From assembly GCF_018398935.1 (NCBI RefSeq), contig NZ_CP074694.1, forward strand, positions 1,740,001 to 1,772,000: a stretch of 32,000 bases of DNA, written 5' to 3'. Below are positions 7,531-23,993 of the stretch, piece after piece. Both the position numbers and the translations under genes were made by a program. Every line of letters starts with the position of its first letter. Position 1 is the stretch's first letter. The notes under the pieces were generated by a model. It had not been told where the DNA came from and made no database searches. It saw only the letters and a program-made list of their open reading frames with translations. This stretch comes from Telmatocola sphagniphila. Its GTDB lineage: Bacteria; Planctomycetota; Planctomycetia; Gemmatales; Gemmataceae.

Positions 7531-9468
7531 ATGGAAAACCCGACCGGTAATAAACCCGAACGCAAGCGTACTTCTTTCACCTTGAACTACGCCCCGATTC
7601 TCGTCATCGCCTTATTCGGTGTGATGCTTTGGTATCAGAGCAAAGAACCGACGATTCAGACGATTCCGTACGGAAAATTCAAACAGCTGATCGGCGCCCC
7701 CGGTATCACGTTCCGCAGCCTGAAAGTGGGCCGCAACGATATTCGCGGGGAGATCATCACCCGCGATAATATTGCCGGCCCCGAGGATGTGGAACCCAAG
7801 AGCGATCAGCCCCATATCACTTCTTTCAAGGTTCTTAGGCTAGGCGTCGAACGGGACGAACAACTCTACCCGCTTCTGGATAAATACGTCGTCGATTATC
7901 AGGCCGAGGAAGAAGACAAACCGATCCAGACCGCACTGAGTACGTTTCTCTGGCTGGCGTTGATGCTGGCGGGAGGCGTGGCGATTTTGTTTCTTTCGAT
8001 GCGATTTTTCGGTGGTTCGCCCTTTTCTTTCGGCCGCAGCCGTCACAAAGTCTTTGCTCAAAAAGACAGTACGAAAATTACGTTCGAAGACGTGGCGGGC
8101 ATTGATGAAGCGAAAGCGGAATTGCGAGAAGTAGTCGATTTTCTCAAGAAACCGGAAAAATATCAGGCTCTGGGAGGCCGCATCCCCAAGGGCGTTCTTT
8201 TGGTCGGCCCACCCGGTACCGGAAAAACGCTGCTCGCGCGTTCAGTGGCGGGTGAAGCGGGCGTCCCCTTTTTCAGCATCAGCGGCAGCGATTTCGTCGA
8301 ACTCTTTGCCGGCGTCGGAGCATCCCGGGTCCGGGATCTGTTCCGGGACGCCGAGTCGAATGCTCCCTGCATCATCTTCATAGACGAACTCGATGCCATG
8401 GGTAAGACTCGCTCCTCGAATTCCATGATGAGCCACGAAGAACGGGAACAGACTCTTAATCAACTCCTGGTGGAAATGGATGGCTTCGACACCAATCGCG
8501 GCGTCATTCTGATGGCGGCCACCAACCGCCCGGAAACGCTCGATGCCGCCTTGCTCCGGCCGGGCCGATTTGATCGTACTGTGGTTGTGGATCGGCCCGA
8601 TATCGACGGCCGGGAAGCCATTCTGAAAGTTCATGCGCGAACGGTGAAACTGGCGCCCGATGTCAATCTTCGCAAGATCGCCGCTCTCACGCCGGGCGCT
8701 GCGGGGGCCGATCTGGCCAATCTGGTAAACGAAGGGGCTCTTCTGGCGGCTAGACGGGGTAAATCGTCCGTGACTATGAGCGAACTGGATGAGGCCGTCG
8801 AACGTGGCGCGGTCGGCTTAGAGCGCCGTAGCCGTGTCATGCGACCGGAAGAGAAAAATCGGGTCGCCGTGCACGAAGCCGGACACGCACTCGTGGCCTG
8901 TGTGGTAGACGGCTGCGATCCCGTTCACAAGGTCTCAATTATTCCCCGAGGGATGGCCGGCGGCTATGTACTTCAACGACCGGATGGGGATCGCACGCTG
9001 ATTACCCGGCATGAACTTGAAGCGCGGATTAAGGTTGCTCTAGGGGGGACCATTGCCGAAGAAATTATCCTCGGTGAAATCTCCACCGGCGCGACTTCCG
9101 ATCTTCAGACTGTCAACGACATCGCACAGCGCATGGTTCGCGAGTTCGGCATGAGCCGACTGGGCCGGGTTTACCACGCCGGGGAACAGAACTCGTTTCT
9201 TCCGGGCTTCATGGAGAAAAGTAACGTCAGCGAGCAGACTTCCCGGGAGATCGATCTGGAAGTTCGCAGCATCATCGAACAATGCGTTAGCACAGTGAGA
9301 GACCTCATCGCCAATAACCAGCCGGCCCTCAACGAGTTGGCGCAATGCCTGATCGATAAAGAGGTTATTGAAGGTCGGGAACTGTATCAGATTCTATCCC
9401 GGGTTGGGGCGCCGCTCACGGAAGCCGCGATGAAGACTCTTCTGGAAAGCAAAGCCGAGATTCCCTGA
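7531..9468 (+). CDS. ftsH: ATP-dependent zinc metalloprotease FtsH (canonical, membrane-anchored)
   Basis: There are two N-terminal hydrophobic helices ([15 protein letters not shown] and [18 protein letters not shown]). Walker A is GPPGTGKT and Walker B is IIFIDELD. The SRH is [20 protein letters not shown], and the M41 zinc site is HEAGHA with a downstream GATSDLQ. Confidence 0.95.
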
Positions 9469-11634
9469 TCACTGGTCGATGCATTCCACCTTGTAGACTT
9501 CGAAGTGATGCTTGCGGGTCGAGAAGCAATCGATCCGAATCTTCTTTTCGCCCGGCGGAATCAACCAGTCCTGTTCCAGTGTGGTCAACTGCTCAGTGAT
9601 GGGGAATTTCGGGTCGGTTTGGCCATCCACCAGAGTGATAGTCGCTTCTTTTTCCGGAGTTTCCATCTCGGGATCTTTCTCCGTTCGCGATTTCAATCTC
9701 ACTTCGATTCTCAGGCGTATTTTGCGTTCGACTTCGGTCGGATTCACCAGCCGTAATTCGGTGCCAGAGTCGCAGAATCGGCCGATGCCTTCCAACCCTT
9801 CGAATTCAATTCCCGCTCCTTTGCCCCAGAGGCCCAGCACCGGGTAACGCTCCTGACGATGCACTTTTTCCCACTCCTCAGGATCCAGGGAAGCAATCCG
9901 CCGCGCTTGCAGATTGCTTAAAGTAAAGTAACTCATCCGCTCGTCGGGCGAAACGATCGGCTGCGTTTTCAGCTTCTGGCTTAAAAGCCGTTCCATCTCG
10001 ACGGCGTTATCCTTGTAGGCTTCCCGAAATACCATCACCCCGGCACAATCGGCATCGGCCAGGGCAATCAAGCGCTCTTCGACGGGCTTGGATTCCATGC
10101 GTTTAGCCCAGGCATCGCCATAACGACCGCGGGGTGCCCCGAAGGACCAGTGCAAGGTTCGCGAGTGCAATTGCGGCCGGAAGAGATCGGTCCATTTGAA
10201 CAGAATCCCCTGCGGCTCCCCTTCCGCTTCCGGATAAGGCCGAAACGGAAGCTGATAGACAATTTTCCCCGGTTCAATGTCGCGTTCGACGTTGGCCGTG
10301 AATTCTTTGTCGCTGGTGTATCGACGTTTGAGATTTTCAAAATGCGGCATCAATCGGGGGGTCGTCTGATCGGCCACGCCGAGAACGGTCAGCAGAGCGA
10401 TGAGGAGACCAACCAGAGTTTTTTGAACGGTCGTCGTGGCCCGCTGAGTCAACAGGTAATTCAAGAATAGAGCAACGCTGGCTAAGGCGAATAAACCAAT
10501 GAAGACGCTGATACGGTTATAGCCGCGTATCCAGGGACTGACGAAGAAGGCAAAGAAGGAGCCAAAGGCCCCGACGGTGCCCAGAAGAAAGCCTCCCACC
10601 GCGAGTAGAGCTAGTGCATCGAGAAGGCGATTTTCCGACTCGCCGACTGGCCGGCGAGCCAAGAGCAGAAAACGCAGGAGCAGGTAGCTGAAGCCCACCG
10701 CCCCGATTAAGCCGAGGGTGGCAGTTTGATTTTCGGTATTGATCGGCGTACGCGAAGAGTAATGTTCTTTGAACTTCTCAAAGAGCGGCAAGCGGTGACC
10801 CGTGACGGGAACCAGCAGTTGCATCATCTTCAGGCCGAGTGTTTCGGACTCCGCAGGGAGGCGATAAACCGCATCCGGATTAAAGGGAGATTTACGCTTG
10901 TGTTGAATGGCCGGGAATAAGGCAACCAGCAGCGTGGTGAATATTACGGCGATGCAGGCTATGGACTTCAGGAGTGGCTTCCATTGGCGATCCAGAAGAG
11001 ATCGGGATAGGCCGCACAGCAGCAGAAAATAACAGCTGAAAAAGGCGAAGTAGATGCCGGAGAGGCCCAGAATCAGGCCGATGATCAACGTTCCAATCTT
11101 CGACAGTGGGCGACCTTGATAGAGGCGTATCGCCGGCAGAATTCCCAGTGGTATCGGCCAATAGGACACTAGAAAGAAATGCCCCATCCTCATGAAGTGA
11201 AAAGGCAGGCAGGTGAACAGCAAACTGCTCATCAATGCGGGTAAAAAACGCAGGCCGAGTTGTCGTAAAACGAAGAGTGTCGTCCAAGAAGTAAGCACGC
11301 ATCCCAGAAGATAGTAAATATTGAAGACCAGCGCCGGATCGGGAAAAGCTTTCGCTAGCGGCCAGAGAATTGCATAGTGCAAAATATCCGCTGAGGGAAA
11401 TTCGTTGAGATCCATCCCGTCCGGGGCGCCGAAGCGTTCGTTGTAGCGATACCAGCCGGTTTCAATCATGGTTTCGATCCATAATTGATGTTGGATGGCA
11501 TCCCCTTCATAGCTGAAAGGAACGTGCGGATCGGCCTGCCAAAGCTTCATCGGAATTCCCACGGCCAGAAGGCTGAGAATACCGGCGAGCGTATACTCAA
11601 ATACGGTTTTACGAAGCGAAGGTGTCTCTTCCAT
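9469..11634 (-). CDS. Large polytopic membrane protein with a C-terminal soluble domain, possibly a GT-C-type glycosyltransferase
   Basis: 721-aa ORF with an ATG start. About 12 hydrophobic segments occupy the first ~400 aa, followed by a ~300-aa hydrophilic domain. The function call is architecture-based only. Confidence 0.6.
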   Translation of the reverse strand: MEETPSLRKTVFEYTLAGILSLLAVGIPMKLWQADPHVPFSYEGDAIQHQLWIETMIETGWYRYNERFGAPDGMDLNEFPSADILHYAILWPLAKAFPDPALVFNIYYLLGCVLTSWTTLFVLRQLGLRFLPALMSSLLFTCLPFHFMRMGHFFLVSYWPIPLGILPAIRLYQGRPLSKIGTLIIGLILGLSGIYFAFFSCYFLLLCGLSRSLLDRQWKPLLKSIACIAVIFTTLLVALFPAIQHKRKSPFNPDAVYRLPAESETLGLKMMQLLVPVTGHRLPLFEKFKEHYSSRTPINTENQTATLGLIGAVGFSYLLLRFLLLARRPVGESENRLLDALALLAVGGFLLGTVGAFGSFFAFFVSPWIRGYNRISVFIGLFALASVALFLNYLLTQRATTTVQKTLVGLLIALLTVLGVADQTTPRLMPHFENLKRRYTSDKEFTANVERDIEPGKIVYQLPFRPYPEAEGEPQGILFKWTDLFRPQLHSRTLHWSFGAPRGRYGDAWAKRMESKPVEERLIALADADCAGVMVFREAYKDNAVEMERLLSQKLKTQPIVSPDERMSYFTLSNLQARRIASLDPEEWEKVHRQERYPVLGLWGKGAGIEFEGLEGIGRFCDSGTELRLVNPTEVERKIRLRIEVRLKSRTEKDPEMETPEKEATITLVDGQTDPKFPITEQLTTLEQDWLIPPGEKKIRIDCFSTRKHHFEVYKVECIDQ

Positions 11635-17543: not shown

Positions 17544-18815
17544 TTACTTCCCGACGGTCATTCGATATGGCTTCCAGTAATCCCCCTGGATCGCATCAGG
17601 CGTCTCGTGAATCAGCAGTAGAAATGCCAGCGAAATCAACAACTGGCTCAAAGCGATCAGCACTAAGAACCATCGACCGGGTCCGAAACGCAAGCCCACG
17701 TAACCGAGACTGACGTACATCAAAGGAAAAGTGAGCAGCATATAGTGGCGATGCACGGGCAGAAGACTCAAGGTGAATATCAGCCCGAAGCCGAGGGCCC
17801 CGGCCAAGATCGTAAAACGCGTCGGGGATGCGGGATCGCGAAGCAGGGAACCTAAATCTTTTCGAAGCGAATACACTTTATTCCCCCCCTTCCAAACAAA
17901 ATATCCCATAGCTAACCCAAGAAAAACATGCAGTGCTCCGATGAGATATGTCGGAAACCCGGCCACCCTCGGTCCTGCAAGAAATCTCGGGAAGTCTTTA
18001 TCCAGGGAGTAGCTCAGGCTGAAACCAAAAGCTTCGGATATCCAGCGCGTCCAGAATTTGAATTCGAAAGCGTTTCCTGGTTTCCGCTGACTAATCGGAT
18101 TGATGGCCATCGTTTCAAAAGCGTATCGCAACCAGGGAACCAGTAAAAGCAGGCCGATGCTGCTGCCAATGACCCAGTAAAGCCAGCGTGCCGAGTTTCT
18201 CTGAAACAAAAATACCCATAGAGCGAAGCCCAAGGACACAAACATCCCGGCCGGATGAATCTGTGCAAGTAATAATCCGCTCAATCCCCAGCAGAAGGCG
18301 CCAATCCGGCTCGAACGATACCAAAATGCCATGGTGAAGAGCATCACGAAGAGTGGAGCGATCGACGGGGGCCAGATTTTTCTCTGGAGTACCACAGCGA
18401 GGGGATTCACTGCAGCGAAAACGCTTCCCCAGAGCCAGTATTCTCGCTCCGGTCTCGGTACGCAAAATAGGCCAAAGATTGCGACCAGGAGTACAGCCGC
18501 ACAATTCGTGAGTTGACAGGCCCGGGCCAACTCCAACGGTGTACGAGTCTGAAAGAGCCAGGCGAGTGCCTCAAAAATGTAGACGGTACCACTGGGATGG
18601 CGAAGATCGTAACTGGTGGGCATGCCAAGCCAGGGATGCGGATCGTTAGGATCGGTGGCCAAAGTCCTATGGAAGGTCCAGGCTTCGTCTCCCTTATACT
18701 CGATGTCCTCAACCCAGACCAAACGAAGAAAGACGCCCGCACAAAGAGCGAACACCAAGCCGAGAATGGCCCAAGCGCTAAGACGTCCCTGCAAACTCTG
18801 TCGTGGTAAATCCAT
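17544..18815 (-). CDS. Polytopic membrane protein, GT-C/ArnT-like glycosyltransferase candidate
   Basis: 423 aa with an ATG start and about 10-11 hydrophobic helices. An early loop carries a D/E-containing motif (VEDIEYKGDEAW), like the first-loop acidic motif of GT-C enzymes. The function is inferred from architecture. Confidence 0.55.
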   Translation of the reverse strand: MDLPRQSLQGRLSAWAILGLVFALCAGVFLRLVWVEDIEYKGDEAWTFHRTLATDPNDPHPWLGMPTSYDLRHPSGTVYIFEALAWLFQTRTPLELARACQLTNCAAVLLVAIFGLFCVPRPEREYWLWGSVFAAVNPLAVVLQRKIWPPSIAPLFVMLFTMAFWYRSSRIGAFCWGLSGLLLAQIHPAGMFVSLGFALWVFLFQRNSARWLYWVIGSSIGLLLLVPWLRYAFETMAINPISQRKPGNAFEFKFWTRWISEAFGFSLSYSLDKDFPRFLAGPRVAGFPTYLIGALHVFLGLAMGYFVWKGGNKVYSLRKDLGSLLRDPASPTRFTILAGALGFGLIFTLSLLPVHRHYMLLTFPLMYVSLGYVGLRFGPGRWFLVLIALSQLLISLAFLLLIHETPDAIQGDYWKPYRMTVGK

Positions 18816-18847: not shown

Positions 18848-19276
18848 CTAATTCTGAGTATGAGCTTTTCGCACGTGATCGGCGGCCAGTTCGACCGGTA
18901 GATGCCAGCCGCAGTCATCGCAGGCCGGCAGTTTTTCGTAACAGTTCTTGCAATAGAGCGGGCCGCCATGCAGAAATTGTTCCAAGCGTTTGCGATCCGT
19001 TTTGGCAATCCCTTCCGATTTCATGGGGAAAGGTTCGTCGCCACCGCACTTCTCGCAGGGGTGGGTGTTATTGTCGGTTATGACCTGCTTGTAGTGGTTG
19101 TGGATTCCGCACGGCACCACCCCAGTGCCGGAACAAAGCGGGCATTCCATTCCGAATTGCGCGACAATCGCTTTTCGAATGAAGTCGCTTTTGTTGGGCA
19201 ACTTATTCAAAAAATCCGCGAGATCCTCTTCGACCTTAAAAGCGACGATCTGAGTCTTATTAGTTTTTCTCGCCAT
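18848..19276 (-). CDS. Ribbon-helix-helix DNA-binding protein fused to a Cys-rich (DnaJ-like CxxCxGxG) zinc-finger domain
   Basis: GGAAGAGGGA lies upstream of the ATG. The N-terminus TQIVAFKVEEDLADFLNKLPNKSDFIRKAIVAQF has a beta-alpha-alpha RHH pattern. It is followed by CPLCSGTG, PCGIH, CEKCGGD, CKNC and CDDC. Confidence 0.7.
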   Translation of the reverse strand: MARKTNKTQIVAFKVEEDLADFLNKLPNKSDFIRKAIVAQFGMECPLCSGTGVVPCGIHNHYKQVITDNNTHPCEKCGGDEPFPMKSEGIAKTDRKRLEQFLHGGPLYCKNCYEKLPACDDCGWHLPVELAADHVRKAHTQN

Positions 19277-21902: not shown

Positions 21903-23993
21903 ATGTCTTTGATTTCCGAAAAAGAACTCGCCGTCGAGCTGAAAACGGAGCAATCCGTGGAAGCGGCTTACAGCCGCGAACTGGTTCAGGTGACTGCCGA
22001 TCTGCGGCGTGGCCTGCCGACTCTAATCGAGTGCGACAAAGAGCTGGCCCCTTTTGTTTTCCTGCAAATCCGAAACCGGCTCAAGGAGTTTTCCCTGAAA
22101 TGCCAGTATCTGGATGGCCGGCAGCCCGCGACTTCCGAAGGCGGTATGACCGTCGGCTTATTGGCCAGCATACTCAACCAACTTCGCGAGGCGGTTCGCG
22201 GCGCCACCGAGCAGAAGGTCCTTATCCTTCCTCATCTGGATCTGCTGACCACCTCTCAGGGGGGCCTGACCTCCGAAGCTCGCGAAGCCGTGGTGCTGCT
22301 CTACGAAAATCCGAACATTGTCTGTCTGGGATTTAAAGACCCTTCCTTCCCATTACCGCGCGTGATTGAGAATCTTTTCCCCAGACGCGTGAATCTGCTG
22401 GGAATTCCTCGCGATCGCCTGCGCTACCTGATCACGCAAAAGGAGAGCCGCAAGTTCGGCCGGGAGTTAAATCCTTGGGCGCTTTACAAATATGTTTCCG
22501 GTATGAACGCCGTGAGATTGCGACGCGTACTGAGTACCCTGGAAGGCGAAGATTATCCCACCGATCCGCGCAAAGCCTACAGTGAAATCCGCTCTGCTAC
22601 GCTCGCTGGTTCACTGGAGATGCCGGAAGTCGATTTGAATCGCGATATCGGCGGCTATGCCAAGGTGAAAACCCGTTTACAACGAGAAATTCTGGATCTT
22701 TTGCTTCGCCGGGAACGCGCCGAGAGTGAGGAGGCTGCCAGCCGTTTGGAGGAACTAATTCCGCGCGGTCTGATTTTCTGGGGACCGCCCGGCACCGGCA
22801 AAACCTTTTTTGCAAAAGCGATGGCAACCGCCATCGGCGCGGCCATCACCATCGTCTCCGGTCCGGAACTCAAGAGCAAATGGGTCGGGGAATCGGAGGA
22901 GAATCTCAGGTTGATTTTCCACAAAGCCCGCCAGGCTGCTCCATCCATTATCGTCTTCGACGAGCTGGATTCCTTCGCTTCCTCGCGAGGTACCTACTCC
23001 GGCAGCGGCGTGGAACACTCGATGGTCAATCAGCTTTTGACGGAAATGGATGGATTCCACAAGGACGAACTGGTCTTCATCGTCGGGACCACGAACTTTG
23101 TGGAAGCGCTCGACCCGGCCCTGCTGCGCCCCGGCCGCTTTGAGTTCCATCTTCATATCCCCTACCCCGATGCTGAGGATCGCCGGGCAATTCTGAAGAT
23201 TTACGATCAGAAAATGAACCTGCAGTTTACCGAGGCGGCTTTGGAAATGGCCGTTAAGCGAACGGGCGATTTCGTTGAAGGCACGGCGGATGATACTCGG
23301 TTCAGCGGCGACCACATCAACGCCTTGTGTCGATCCATTGCACGAATTAGGCTGCGGGAAAATAAAACTGGCCCGACCGCTGCCAGCGAGATCGAACAGG
23401 CGCTGATGGAATATGTGGATACTCCCAAGCTATCGGCTCAGGAAGAACTCGTGGTGGCCACCCACGAATCGGGCCATGCGGTATGTGCCCTATTCTGCCC
23501 GAACTCCCCGCCCATCGAGCGAATCACGATTCAAAGCGACTCCGCTCGAGCTCTGGGCTACGTTCGCTATCAGGATCGCAATAATCGCTTTGTCGTCACT
23601 CGCAATGAATTACTCGATGACATCTGCGTTCTGCTCGGTGGTCGCGAAGCCGAATCGTTACTGCTGGAGGACCTTTCGATTGGTTCGAGCGATGACTTGA
23701 AGCGAGCCACCAGTTTGGCGCGTTATCTCGTCGAAGAAATCGGCATGGGAGGCGACGAAGTCGGCGTGGTGCGCTACATGGAAGACTTCCGGCAAGGTGC
23801 CACTCGCTGGTCGTCGCTTTCTGAGGAGCAAAAACAGATCCTGGATCGCCGGGTGAAAGAGATACTCAAGGAATCGCTACAGCGGGCGGCGGCGATTCTC
23901 CGCGAAAATCGCGCTCTGCTGTTATCCTTGCGCGACCTGCTTTTGGATAAAAAAGTCATCGATTCGAAAACTCTGCAGGAACTAAAAAAATAA
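21903..23993 (+). CDS. Soluble FtsH-like protease: degenerate N-terminal AAA-like domain + Cdc48-type AAA+ ATPase + M41 zinc peptidase
   Basis: Walker A GPPGTGKT is at 22782-22805 and Walker B IIVFDELD at 22947-22970. SKWVGESEENLRLIF is Cdc48/p97-like. The SRH is [28 protein letters not shown] is at 23463 onward, with a downstream GSSDDLKRAT. There is no hydrophobic helix in the first 290 aa. That region instead shows AAA-like strand/helix spacing without a P-loop (KVLILPHLDLL, VVLLYENPNIVCLGF). Confidence 0.85.
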   Translation: MSLISEKELAVELKTEQSVEAAYSRELVQVTADLRRGLPTLIECDKELAPFVFLQIRNRLKEFSLKCQYLDGRQPATSEGGMTVGLLASILNQLREAVRGATEQKVLILPHLDLLTTSQGGLTSEAREAVVLLYENPNIVCLGFKDPSFPLPRVIENLFPRRVNLLGIPRDRLRYLITQKESRKFGRELNPWALYKYVSGMNAVRLRRVLSTLEGEDYPTDPRKAYSEIRSATLAGSLEMPEVDLNRDIGGYAKVKTRLQREILDLLLRRERAESEEAASRLEELIPRGLIFWGPPGTGKTFFAKAMATAIGAAITIVSGPELKSKWVGESEENLRLIFHKARQAAPSIIVFDELDSFASSRGTYSGSGVEHSMVNQLLTEMDGFHKDELVFIVGTTNFVEALDPALLRPGRFEFHLHIPYPDAEDRRAILKIYDQKMNLQFTEAALEMAVKRTGDFVEGTADDTRFSGDHINALCRSIARIRLRENKTGPTAASEIEQALMEYVDTPKLSAQEELVVATHESGHAVCALFCPNSPPIERITIQSDSARALGYVRYQDRNNRFVVTRNELLDDICVLLGGREAESLLLEDLSIGSSDDLKRATSLARYLVEEIGMGGDEVGVVRYMEDFRQGATRWSSLSEEQKQILDRRVKEILKESLQRAAAILRENRALLLSLRDLLLDKKVIDSKTLQELKK

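Follow-up and report, generated by a model that had tools for sequence, protein, structure and literature searches.

The gene at positions 21,903 to 23,993 of a 32,000-nucleotide stretch of the Telmatocola sphagniphila genome (contig NZ_CP074694.1, positions 1,740,001 to 1,772,000; hereafter the window) is likely to encode a cytosolic AAA+ zinc protease resembling FtsH, with a dead AAA domain (pseudo-D1) in place of the transmembrane and periplasmic region of FtsH; as the central component of a six-gene operon of the "simple" FtsH ternary type, it would form a hexameric double ring and act on its operon partners or their targets. Kaur, Burroughs, Iyer and Aravind (eLife 2020, PMC7159879), in the parts of their paper concerned with the FtsH ternary system, describe an FtsH-like protein with an inactive N-terminal and an active AAA copy together with its surrounding operon, call both AAA copies "FtsH-type", set the system among the conflict systems centred on MoxR and vWA, assign a radical-SAM effector to its "simple" subtype, and report its occurrence in Planctomycetes, the role in regulated biological conflict being a computational prediction. 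The architecture and the operon are thus already published, and the present locus is a new example of a computationally defined system. No experimental study of the FtsH ternary system or of soluble FtsH-like proteases was found in the literature.

Pfam searches of the protease placed an AAA domain at residues 290-421 (E = 1e-40) and a Peptidase_M41 domain at residues 510-694 (E = 1.5e-38), and no family was matched in residues 1-289. All the motifs quoted in an earlier annotation made from the DNA letters (hereafter the initial annotation) were located at the expected sites of the open reading frame (Table 1). The same annotation had found no hydrophobic helix in the first ~290 residues, in agreement with the highest Kyte-Doolittle mean over 19 residues, which was 0.87 in residues 1-290 and 1.34 across 63 orthologues. 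As no transmembrane segment was detected by hydropathy in the protease or in the 62 other orthologues of this set, the protein is predicted to be a soluble, membrane-free relative of FtsH. In contrast, the canonical FtsH encoded in the window (7531-9468, + strand; TIGR01241 734 bits at a cutoff of 600; zinc site HEAGH) carries hydrophobic segments near residues 22-40 and 135-157, with 19-residue means of up to 2.31. The protease thus differs from canonical FtsH in lacking transmembrane helices and a periplasmic domain and in having an additional, dead AAA domain. The FtsH-type pore-loop sequence reported earlier for the canonical copy was confirmed to be present.

The N-terminal 240 residues yielded no sequence match in Pfam, in NCBIfam or, using phmmer, in the PDB, and their structure was predicted with AlphaFold2 using an input alignment of 36-45 diverse family members. 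The isolated domain (residues 1-240) was modelled with a predicted local distance difference test score (pLDDT) of 93.3 and a predicted template-modelling score (pTM) of 0.89. Only two short helices precede the AAA-like fold, which begins at about residues 15-40 and consists of five strands (beta1 40-44, beta2 66-69, beta3 105-109, beta4 139-145, beta5 161-165) with helices between them. A lid of four helices (residues 170-211) and a linker helix (residues 223-234) come next, and the order of the elements is that of the adjoining active module. When the isolated domain was searched against the PDB using Foldseek, the top 50 matches were all classical AAA ATPases (probability 1.0, E from 1.5e-6, 250-280 aligned columns, 8-16% identity), and 252 matches had E <= 0.001. 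Among the top matches were p97 D1, Vps4, proteasomal Rpt subunits, ATAD1/Msp1, katanin, spastin, Rix7, the AAA domain of YME1, and FtsHi.

In this model the P-loop position is occupied by ECDKELAP, the Walker-B acidic position by PHLD and the sensor-1 region by GFKDPSFP. The N-terminal ~240 residues are accordingly modelled as a degenerate AAA copy that has neither a P-loop nor the Walker B acids, and because both positions are degenerate the domain is predicted to be incapable of canonical ATP binding. An AAA-like region devoid of a P-loop had been proposed in the initial annotation, with KVLILPHLDLL as a Walker-B-like strand, and the model agrees on both counts. A first hhalign register, in which VLILPHLDLL fell on the sensor-1 strand, was ruled out by the AlphaFold2 element order together with the alignment to Cdc48 D1, which place this segment on the Walker-B strand. 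Mean column conservation in residues 101-240 of the N-domain (0.87) lies close to that of the active AAA core (0.92) and above that of the M41 domain (0.62). The invariant residues of the N-domain (E43, C44, K46, G72, H111, D113, E135-N-P137, R170, E181, R183 and K184) map to positions matching the nucleotide pocket and the pore loops, and we infer a structural and docking role for the dead ring.

Both catalytic parts of the protein are conserved. The ATPase residues K300, E354, N398, R409 and R412 and the W327-V-G329 pore loop were invariant in 63 of 63 orthologues, as were the peptidase residues H521, E522, H525 and D598; most of them are also kept in representatives down to 32% identity, and the four peptidase residues in 27-30 of about 30 diverse representatives spanning M41. 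With Foldseek the full model aligned to FtsH, YME1 and AFG3L2 over ~460 columns covering the AAA and M41 domains (E down to 2e-31, target-normalised template-modelling score 0.78-0.80) and to p97 over 565-574 columns covering both AAA folds, that is, both rings. Since the catalytic residues are invariant and the AAA-M41 part of the model aligns to FtsH-type proteases, both the ATPase and the M41 protease are predicted to be intact. The tandem of an inactive D1 and an active D2 joined to M41, as put forward in the initial annotation, therefore holds at the level of the predicted fold and of the catalytic residues. Of the findings that would have spoken against that proposal, none was made: there is no transmembrane segment or signal anchor at the N-terminus, the modelled N-domain is related to AAA proteins, and the gene is not an ordinary FtsH with a mis-called start.

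The protein combines features of several known systems. Like FtsH, YME1 and AFG3L2 (PDB 3kds, 7tdo, 6az0, 6nyy) it joins a single active AAA module of the classical type to an M41 peptidase with an HExxH site, but its pore loop reads KWVG where FtsH has FVG or FAG, its score with the FtsH equivalog model TIGR01241 is 288 bits (cutoff 600), and its AAA module falls outside the FtsH clade (see below). It shares with Cdc48, p97 and VAT two AAA-fold domains in tandem, a likeness confined to the level of the fold, as well as a D2-like pore-loop block and its best hidden Markov model and profile similarity, which is to Cdc48 D2. Unlike these proteins it has no double-psi-barrel N-domain, its first AAA domain is predicted to be unable to bind nucleotide canonically, and its peptidase is covalently joined, whereas Cdc48-type unfoldases use a separate 20S proteasome; its score with TIGR01243 (Cdc48/p97/VAT) is 201 bits at a cutoff of 803.

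The affinity of the active AAA module was assessed using per-domain scores, and whole-chain phmmer scores against the PDB were dropped as evidence for an affinity with Cdc48 because tandem proteins sum two domains. Residues 240-505 taken by themselves scored 199 bits with the NCBIfam model for CDC48, 162 with that for PAN and 155 with that for FtsH, the opposite of the canonical FtsH AAA module of the window (FtsH 493, PAN 291, CDC48 241 bits). In phmmer comparisons the module reached 108 bits with the AAA module of the window's FtsH and 145-168 bits with Cdc48 D2 domains. Profile-profile scores of the family AAA were 477 with Cdc48 D2, 407 with FtsH and 407 with D1, and the mean distances were 1.07 to D2, 1.14 to D1 and 1.36 to FtsH, so that among the clades compared FtsH was the most distant except for Vps4. 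The profile of true FtsH also has its best non-self match in Cdc48 D2 (score 549), and for this reason Cdc48 D2 appears to behave as a slowly evolving hub in similarity scores.

Three distance corrections were applied to 86 AAA modules and 211 alignment columns to build neighbour-joining trees, both including the long-branch variants and leaving them out. The references were PAN from M. jannaschii, Vps4 from yeast, VAT D1 and D2, CDC48A D1 and D2 from Arabidopsis and the AAA module of E. coli FtsH, whose sequences were confirmed against PDB entries, and database proteins assigned by NCBIfam to CDC48 or FtsH were also included. The FtsH modules formed a clade in 94-99% of bootstraps with the family outside it, and the family grouped with FtsH in 1-7%. 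It joined D1 in 28-35%, D2 in 3-21% and the D1+D2 side in 14-47% of bootstraps, and hence never exceeded 47% with Cdc48. The SKWVGESE-type pore-loop block of the protease is not exclusive to Cdc48, as it is found in VAT D2 (SKWVGESEKAIREIF), in yeast Vps4 (SKWMGESEKLVKQLF) and in plant CDC48A D2 (TMWFGESEANVREIF).

Our reading of these comparisons is that the active AAA module does not belong to the canonical FtsH subtype and represents a separate lineage most similar to Cdc48 D2, which sets it apart from the "FtsH-type" label of Kaur et al. (PMC7159879). The phylogenetic placement suggested in the initial annotation thus puts the module outside ordinary FtsH. Of its "Cdc48-type" assignment, the greater closeness to Cdc48 D2 than to FtsH and the position outside the FtsH clade stand. 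The label itself appears to go further than the evidence, as the grouping with Cdc48 stays at or below 47%, the pore-loop block is shared with Vps4, and the deep placement is left unsettled by the neighbour-joining trees.

The same data bear on a chimeric origin, in which a Cdc48-like type II (D1-D2) AAA protein would have gained an M41 domain and its D1 would then have decayed, so that the ATPase part would be no paralogue of FtsH. We regard this as possible without favouring it. The AAA-only bit scores, the profile-profile scores and the distances all lean towards Cdc48, the FtsH clade leaves the family out while up to 47% of bootstraps place it with D1+D2, the pore-loop block matches that of VAT D2, and the tandem model aligned to both rings of p97. 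However, no Cdc48 grouping reached 50% bootstrap and neighbour-joining is a crude method; the similarity to D2, which true FtsH shares, may reflect slow evolution of D2 rather than common ancestry; the domain characteristic of the Cdc48 N-terminus is absent; and the N-domain does not resemble Cdc48 D1 preferentially. To our knowledge M41 is otherwise found only fused to FtsH-type AAA modules, so that the family could just as well be an FtsH lineage that branched early or evolved fast.

A scan of species-representative genomes identified 80 loci, nearly all in Planctomycetota and mainly in Gemmataceae (Gemmata sp. IIL30, G. algarum and Zavarzinella formosa among them), with N-domain identities of 56-68% in the related loci, and an exhaustive search of representatives yielded at least ~50 clusters (50% identity) carrying the N-domain. 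The 62 intact orthologues of the protease are 697-755 residues long and share the start of the N-domain. The gene order radical-SAM, fvmX6, fvmX5, protease, fvmX3-analog, fvmX7 is conserved across related loci. Among the 61 loci with enough upstream sequence, fvmX5 was present in 47, fvmX6 in 46 and the radical-SAM gene in 37; among the 47 with enough downstream sequence, the fvmX3-analog was present in 41 and fvmX7 in 38, a MoxR gene followed fvmX7 in 17, and ivWA was detected in four (L001/L057, L054, L062 and L076). Like the locus of the window, four others (L028, L033, L047, L049) end at fvmX7, in their case against a glycosyltransferase gene. Two tandem fvmX7 copies, filling the available flank, were counted in 18 loci. 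In Gemmata-type loci (L003, L005, L012, L014-L016, L023, L048, L061, L067, L069, L074) two tandem fvmX7 paralogues of ~1100 residues were observed after the fvmX3-analog.

Several members depart from the common architecture. Variants of ~965-981 residues (P0124, P0128, P0134, P0145, P0165; L084:10001-12946) have the dead AAA domain followed by two AAA modules and M41, and at the last of these loci the genes for the radical-SAM enzyme, fvmX5 and the fvmX3-analog are retained, together with an additional one for a giant WD40 protein. The gene of a distant member (P0177, 32% identity; L082:1798-5758) directly follows one for a protein kinase-trypsin fusion, a putative different effector context. 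Inteins interrupt the active AAA module of some orthologues, of the HNH type just past the P-loop in P0121 and of the LAGLIDADG type near the pore loop in P0127 and L010 (10001-13597). Homologues devoid of M41 were considered and rejected: many of the short matches (<500 residues), L001/L057 among them, are fragments that arose from frameshifts in assemblies of draft or long-read type, the gene being split in L001 into a 494-residue AAA piece and a 186-residue M41 piece, and intact orthologues exist. Separately, proteins were encountered in which two or three genuine FtsH-type AAA modules precede one M41 domain (P0162, P0167, P0230, P0236, P0267, P0190); they are unrelated to the N-domain family, and the two that were scanned, P0162 and P0230, score >1000 bits with TIGR01241.

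The protease gene lies fourth in the operon (Table 1), which is taken to be translationally coupled and whose five junctions all overlap or abut (ATGA, TAATG or a 3-nt spacer, the last between the fvmX5 stop and the protease ATG). The true start of fvmX6 may be an ATG at ~20230, overlapping the radical-SAM stop. The radical-SAM protein scored 103 bits with the NCBIfam NrdG model, under its cutoff, and no family was found for residues 381-1124 of the fvmX7 protein. In the window the operon ends at fvmX7 against convergent genes.

Table 1. Positions, within the window, of the operon genes and of the domains and motifs of the protease.
Feature	Residues or motif	Position	Strand	Basis and remarks
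NrdG/PflA-like radical-SAM enzyme	202 aa	19625..20233	+	Pfam Fer4_12 1.4e-34 and Radical_SAM; first operon gene
fvmX6	376 aa	20203..21333	+	Pfam PF20004 2e-59
fvmX5	189 aa	21330..21899	+	Pfam PF20003 1.9e-56; ATGA overlap with fvmX6
FtsH-like soluble (predicted) tandem-AAA metalloprotease gene	696 aa	21903..23993	+	Open reading frame with ATG start; Pfam AAA and Peptidase_M41; AlphaFold2 model pLDDT 88.7
N-terminal degenerate AAA domain (predicted)	aa 1-240	21903..22622	+	AlphaFold2 fold and Foldseek; conserved
Segment of the N-domain	KVLILPHLDLL, aa 105			
Segment of the N-domain	VVLLYENPNIVCLGF, aa 130			
Segment of the N-domain	RRVNLLGIPRDRLRYLI, aa 161			
Active AAA module (predicted)	aa 239-505	22617..23417	+	Walker A, pore loop 1, Walker B, second region of homology; short lid insertion
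Walker A	GPPGTGKT, aa 294	22782-22805	+	
Pore-loop block	SKWVGESEENLRLIF, aa 325	within 22875-22919	+	Pore loop 1 (KWVG)
Walker B	IIVFDELD, aa 349	22947-22970	+	
Second region of homology (SRH)	aa 396	23088-23144	+	With arginine fingers
M41 zinc-metallopeptidase domain	aa 510-694	23430..23984	+	Pfam PF01434 133 bits
Zinc site	HESGH, aa 521	23463-23477	+	
Third-ligand block	GSSDDLKRAT, aa 594	23682-23711	+	Asp D598
fvmX3-analog small protein	83 aa	23993..24244	+	Pfam PF20002 1.4e-25; TAATG overlap with the protease gene
fvmX7 large protein	1124 aa	24241..27615	+	Pfam PF20005 on aa 136-380; ATGA overlap with the fvmX3-analog; last operon gene

With its inactive N-terminal and active AAA copies in an FtsH-like protein, and with a radical-SAM gene and accessory genes that match the fvmX families of Pfam, which bear the name of the FtsH ternary system, in the operon, the locus matches the "simple" FtsH ternary subtype. 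It differs from the FtsH ternary system in that neither MoxR nor vWA/ivWA was found by Pfam or by iterated profile searches from ~27 kb upstream to ~18 kb downstream of the locus (the window plus ~17 kb of extra flank); a MoxR gene may lie elsewhere in the genome. Several points weigh against the explanation preferred here. Because the MoxR-vWA pair that defines the system is absent from the vicinity, the "ternary" logic may not hold for the present operon, and the locus lies among housekeeping genes rather than in an obvious defence island. The role in a conflict system is a published prediction. The hhalign alignments of the N-domain to AAA profiles were colinear but non-significant (E = 0.005-0.5), and because the sequence link to AAA proteins is not significant by itself, the assignment of its fold rests on the predicted structure. 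More generally, the explanation draws on sequence and predicted structure, from which the hexamer, the ring stacking, the ATPase and protease activities and the substrates are deduced.

Since the flanking genes (ArgJ, ABC transporters, BacA and the canonical FtsH) are housekeeping genes and no recognisable effector domain is present near the operon, the six genes might instead constitute a housekeeping or biosynthetic module, for example one that matures a protein or peptide modified by the radical-SAM enzyme and in which the protease is dedicated to maturation or quality control. The absence of MoxR and vWA is in line with such a role, as is the result of PADLOC, which returned no specific match but only generic AAA ones (IetA, TRIP13), and the inteins in orthologues are typical of important conserved genes. 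We nevertheless consider it doubtful, because the distribution is patchy and lineage-restricted, MoxR and ivWA do occur in related loci and kinase-trypsin or WD40 giants in distant ones, and the expansion of fvmX7 paralogues fits the diversifying pattern described in the relevant part of Kaur et al. (PMC7159879).

The chloroplast Ycf2-FtsHi motor (PDB 8xku, 8xqw, 8xks) offers a further comparison, as it likewise combines degenerate and active modules in an FtsH-derived assembly. With Foldseek it came up among the matches of the full model as well as of the N-domain. A protease-dead unfoldase or scaffold of this kind, with M41 retained as a structural element, would accord with these good matches and with M41 being the least conserved of the domains. 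FtsHi proteins, however, have lost the M41 catalytic residues and form a dead, membrane-bound protease, whereas here the protease motifs are intact and invariant in all orthologues, the dead part is an extra AAA domain and the protein is predicted to be soluble; from the sequences an FtsHi-like dead protease is unlikely, and we leave it only a slight chance. That the gene is an ordinary membrane FtsH with a mis-called start or a mis-assembled N-terminus, for which nothing beyond the AAA-M41 architecture speaks, is ruled out by the data, with a residual probability close to nil, as the frame is closed by a stop two codons upstream of the ATG in what is the fvmX5 gene, the 62 orthologues have a conserved N-domain that starts at the same point, no hydrophobic segment is present, the TIGR01241 score is far below its cutoff and the window encodes a true FtsH at another place.

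For the mechanism that we propose for the FtsH-like tandem-AAA protease, FtsH on the one hand and type II AAA proteins on the other serve as the analogy. The protein would form a hexamer with two stacked rings, the pseudo-D1 ring and the active one; the latter would use its KWVG pore loops to thread polypeptides into the M41 chamber in an ATP-driven manner, and the conserved dead ring might provide a platform for assembly and for the docking of partners. The protease would most likely process, unfold or degrade operon-encoded partners or their targets rather than take part in membrane quality control. Such an action on operon-encoded partners is plausible because the operon is tightly coupled and conserved, and a role in a regulated conflict system may be presumed from the literature. 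More tentatively than for the chimeric origin taken by itself, the ATPase half may be a Cdc48-like type II AAA fused covalently to an M41 chamber, a bacterial "p97 with a built-in protease", with the conserved dead D1 ring as a regulatory receptor for the private partners of the operon and the six-gene core working independently of MoxR-vWA.

Three other open reading frames of the window were noted on the minus strand. The one at 18848-19276, divergent from the operon, encodes 142 residues with an N-terminus resembling a ribbon-helix-helix (KTQIVAFKVEEDLADFLNKLPNKSDFIRKAIVAQF) and several CxxC pairs; it has no Pfam match, the public record lists it as a gene, and its product could be a regulator of the operon. 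A 423-residue multi-pass membrane protein with no Pfam match is encoded at 17544-18815, and a 721-residue protein that was unmatched in our scan, and is recorded publicly as DUF6311, at 9469-11634.

If the preferred explanation is true, a cytosolic double-ring AAA+ machine with a covalent M41 chamber would stand apart in its design from other bacterial proteolytic machines, and the family provides a compact six-gene operon for its study. The points added here to the 2020 description leave the classification of the system unchanged, and its biological role is a prediction. They are that the active AAA module does not appear to be of the canonical FtsH subtype; that the constraint on the dead AAA ring nearly equals that on the live ring, suggesting that the dead ring has a specific role in docking or regulation; and that the six-gene core recurs without an adjacent MoxR-vWA pair and so may be the true functional unit.

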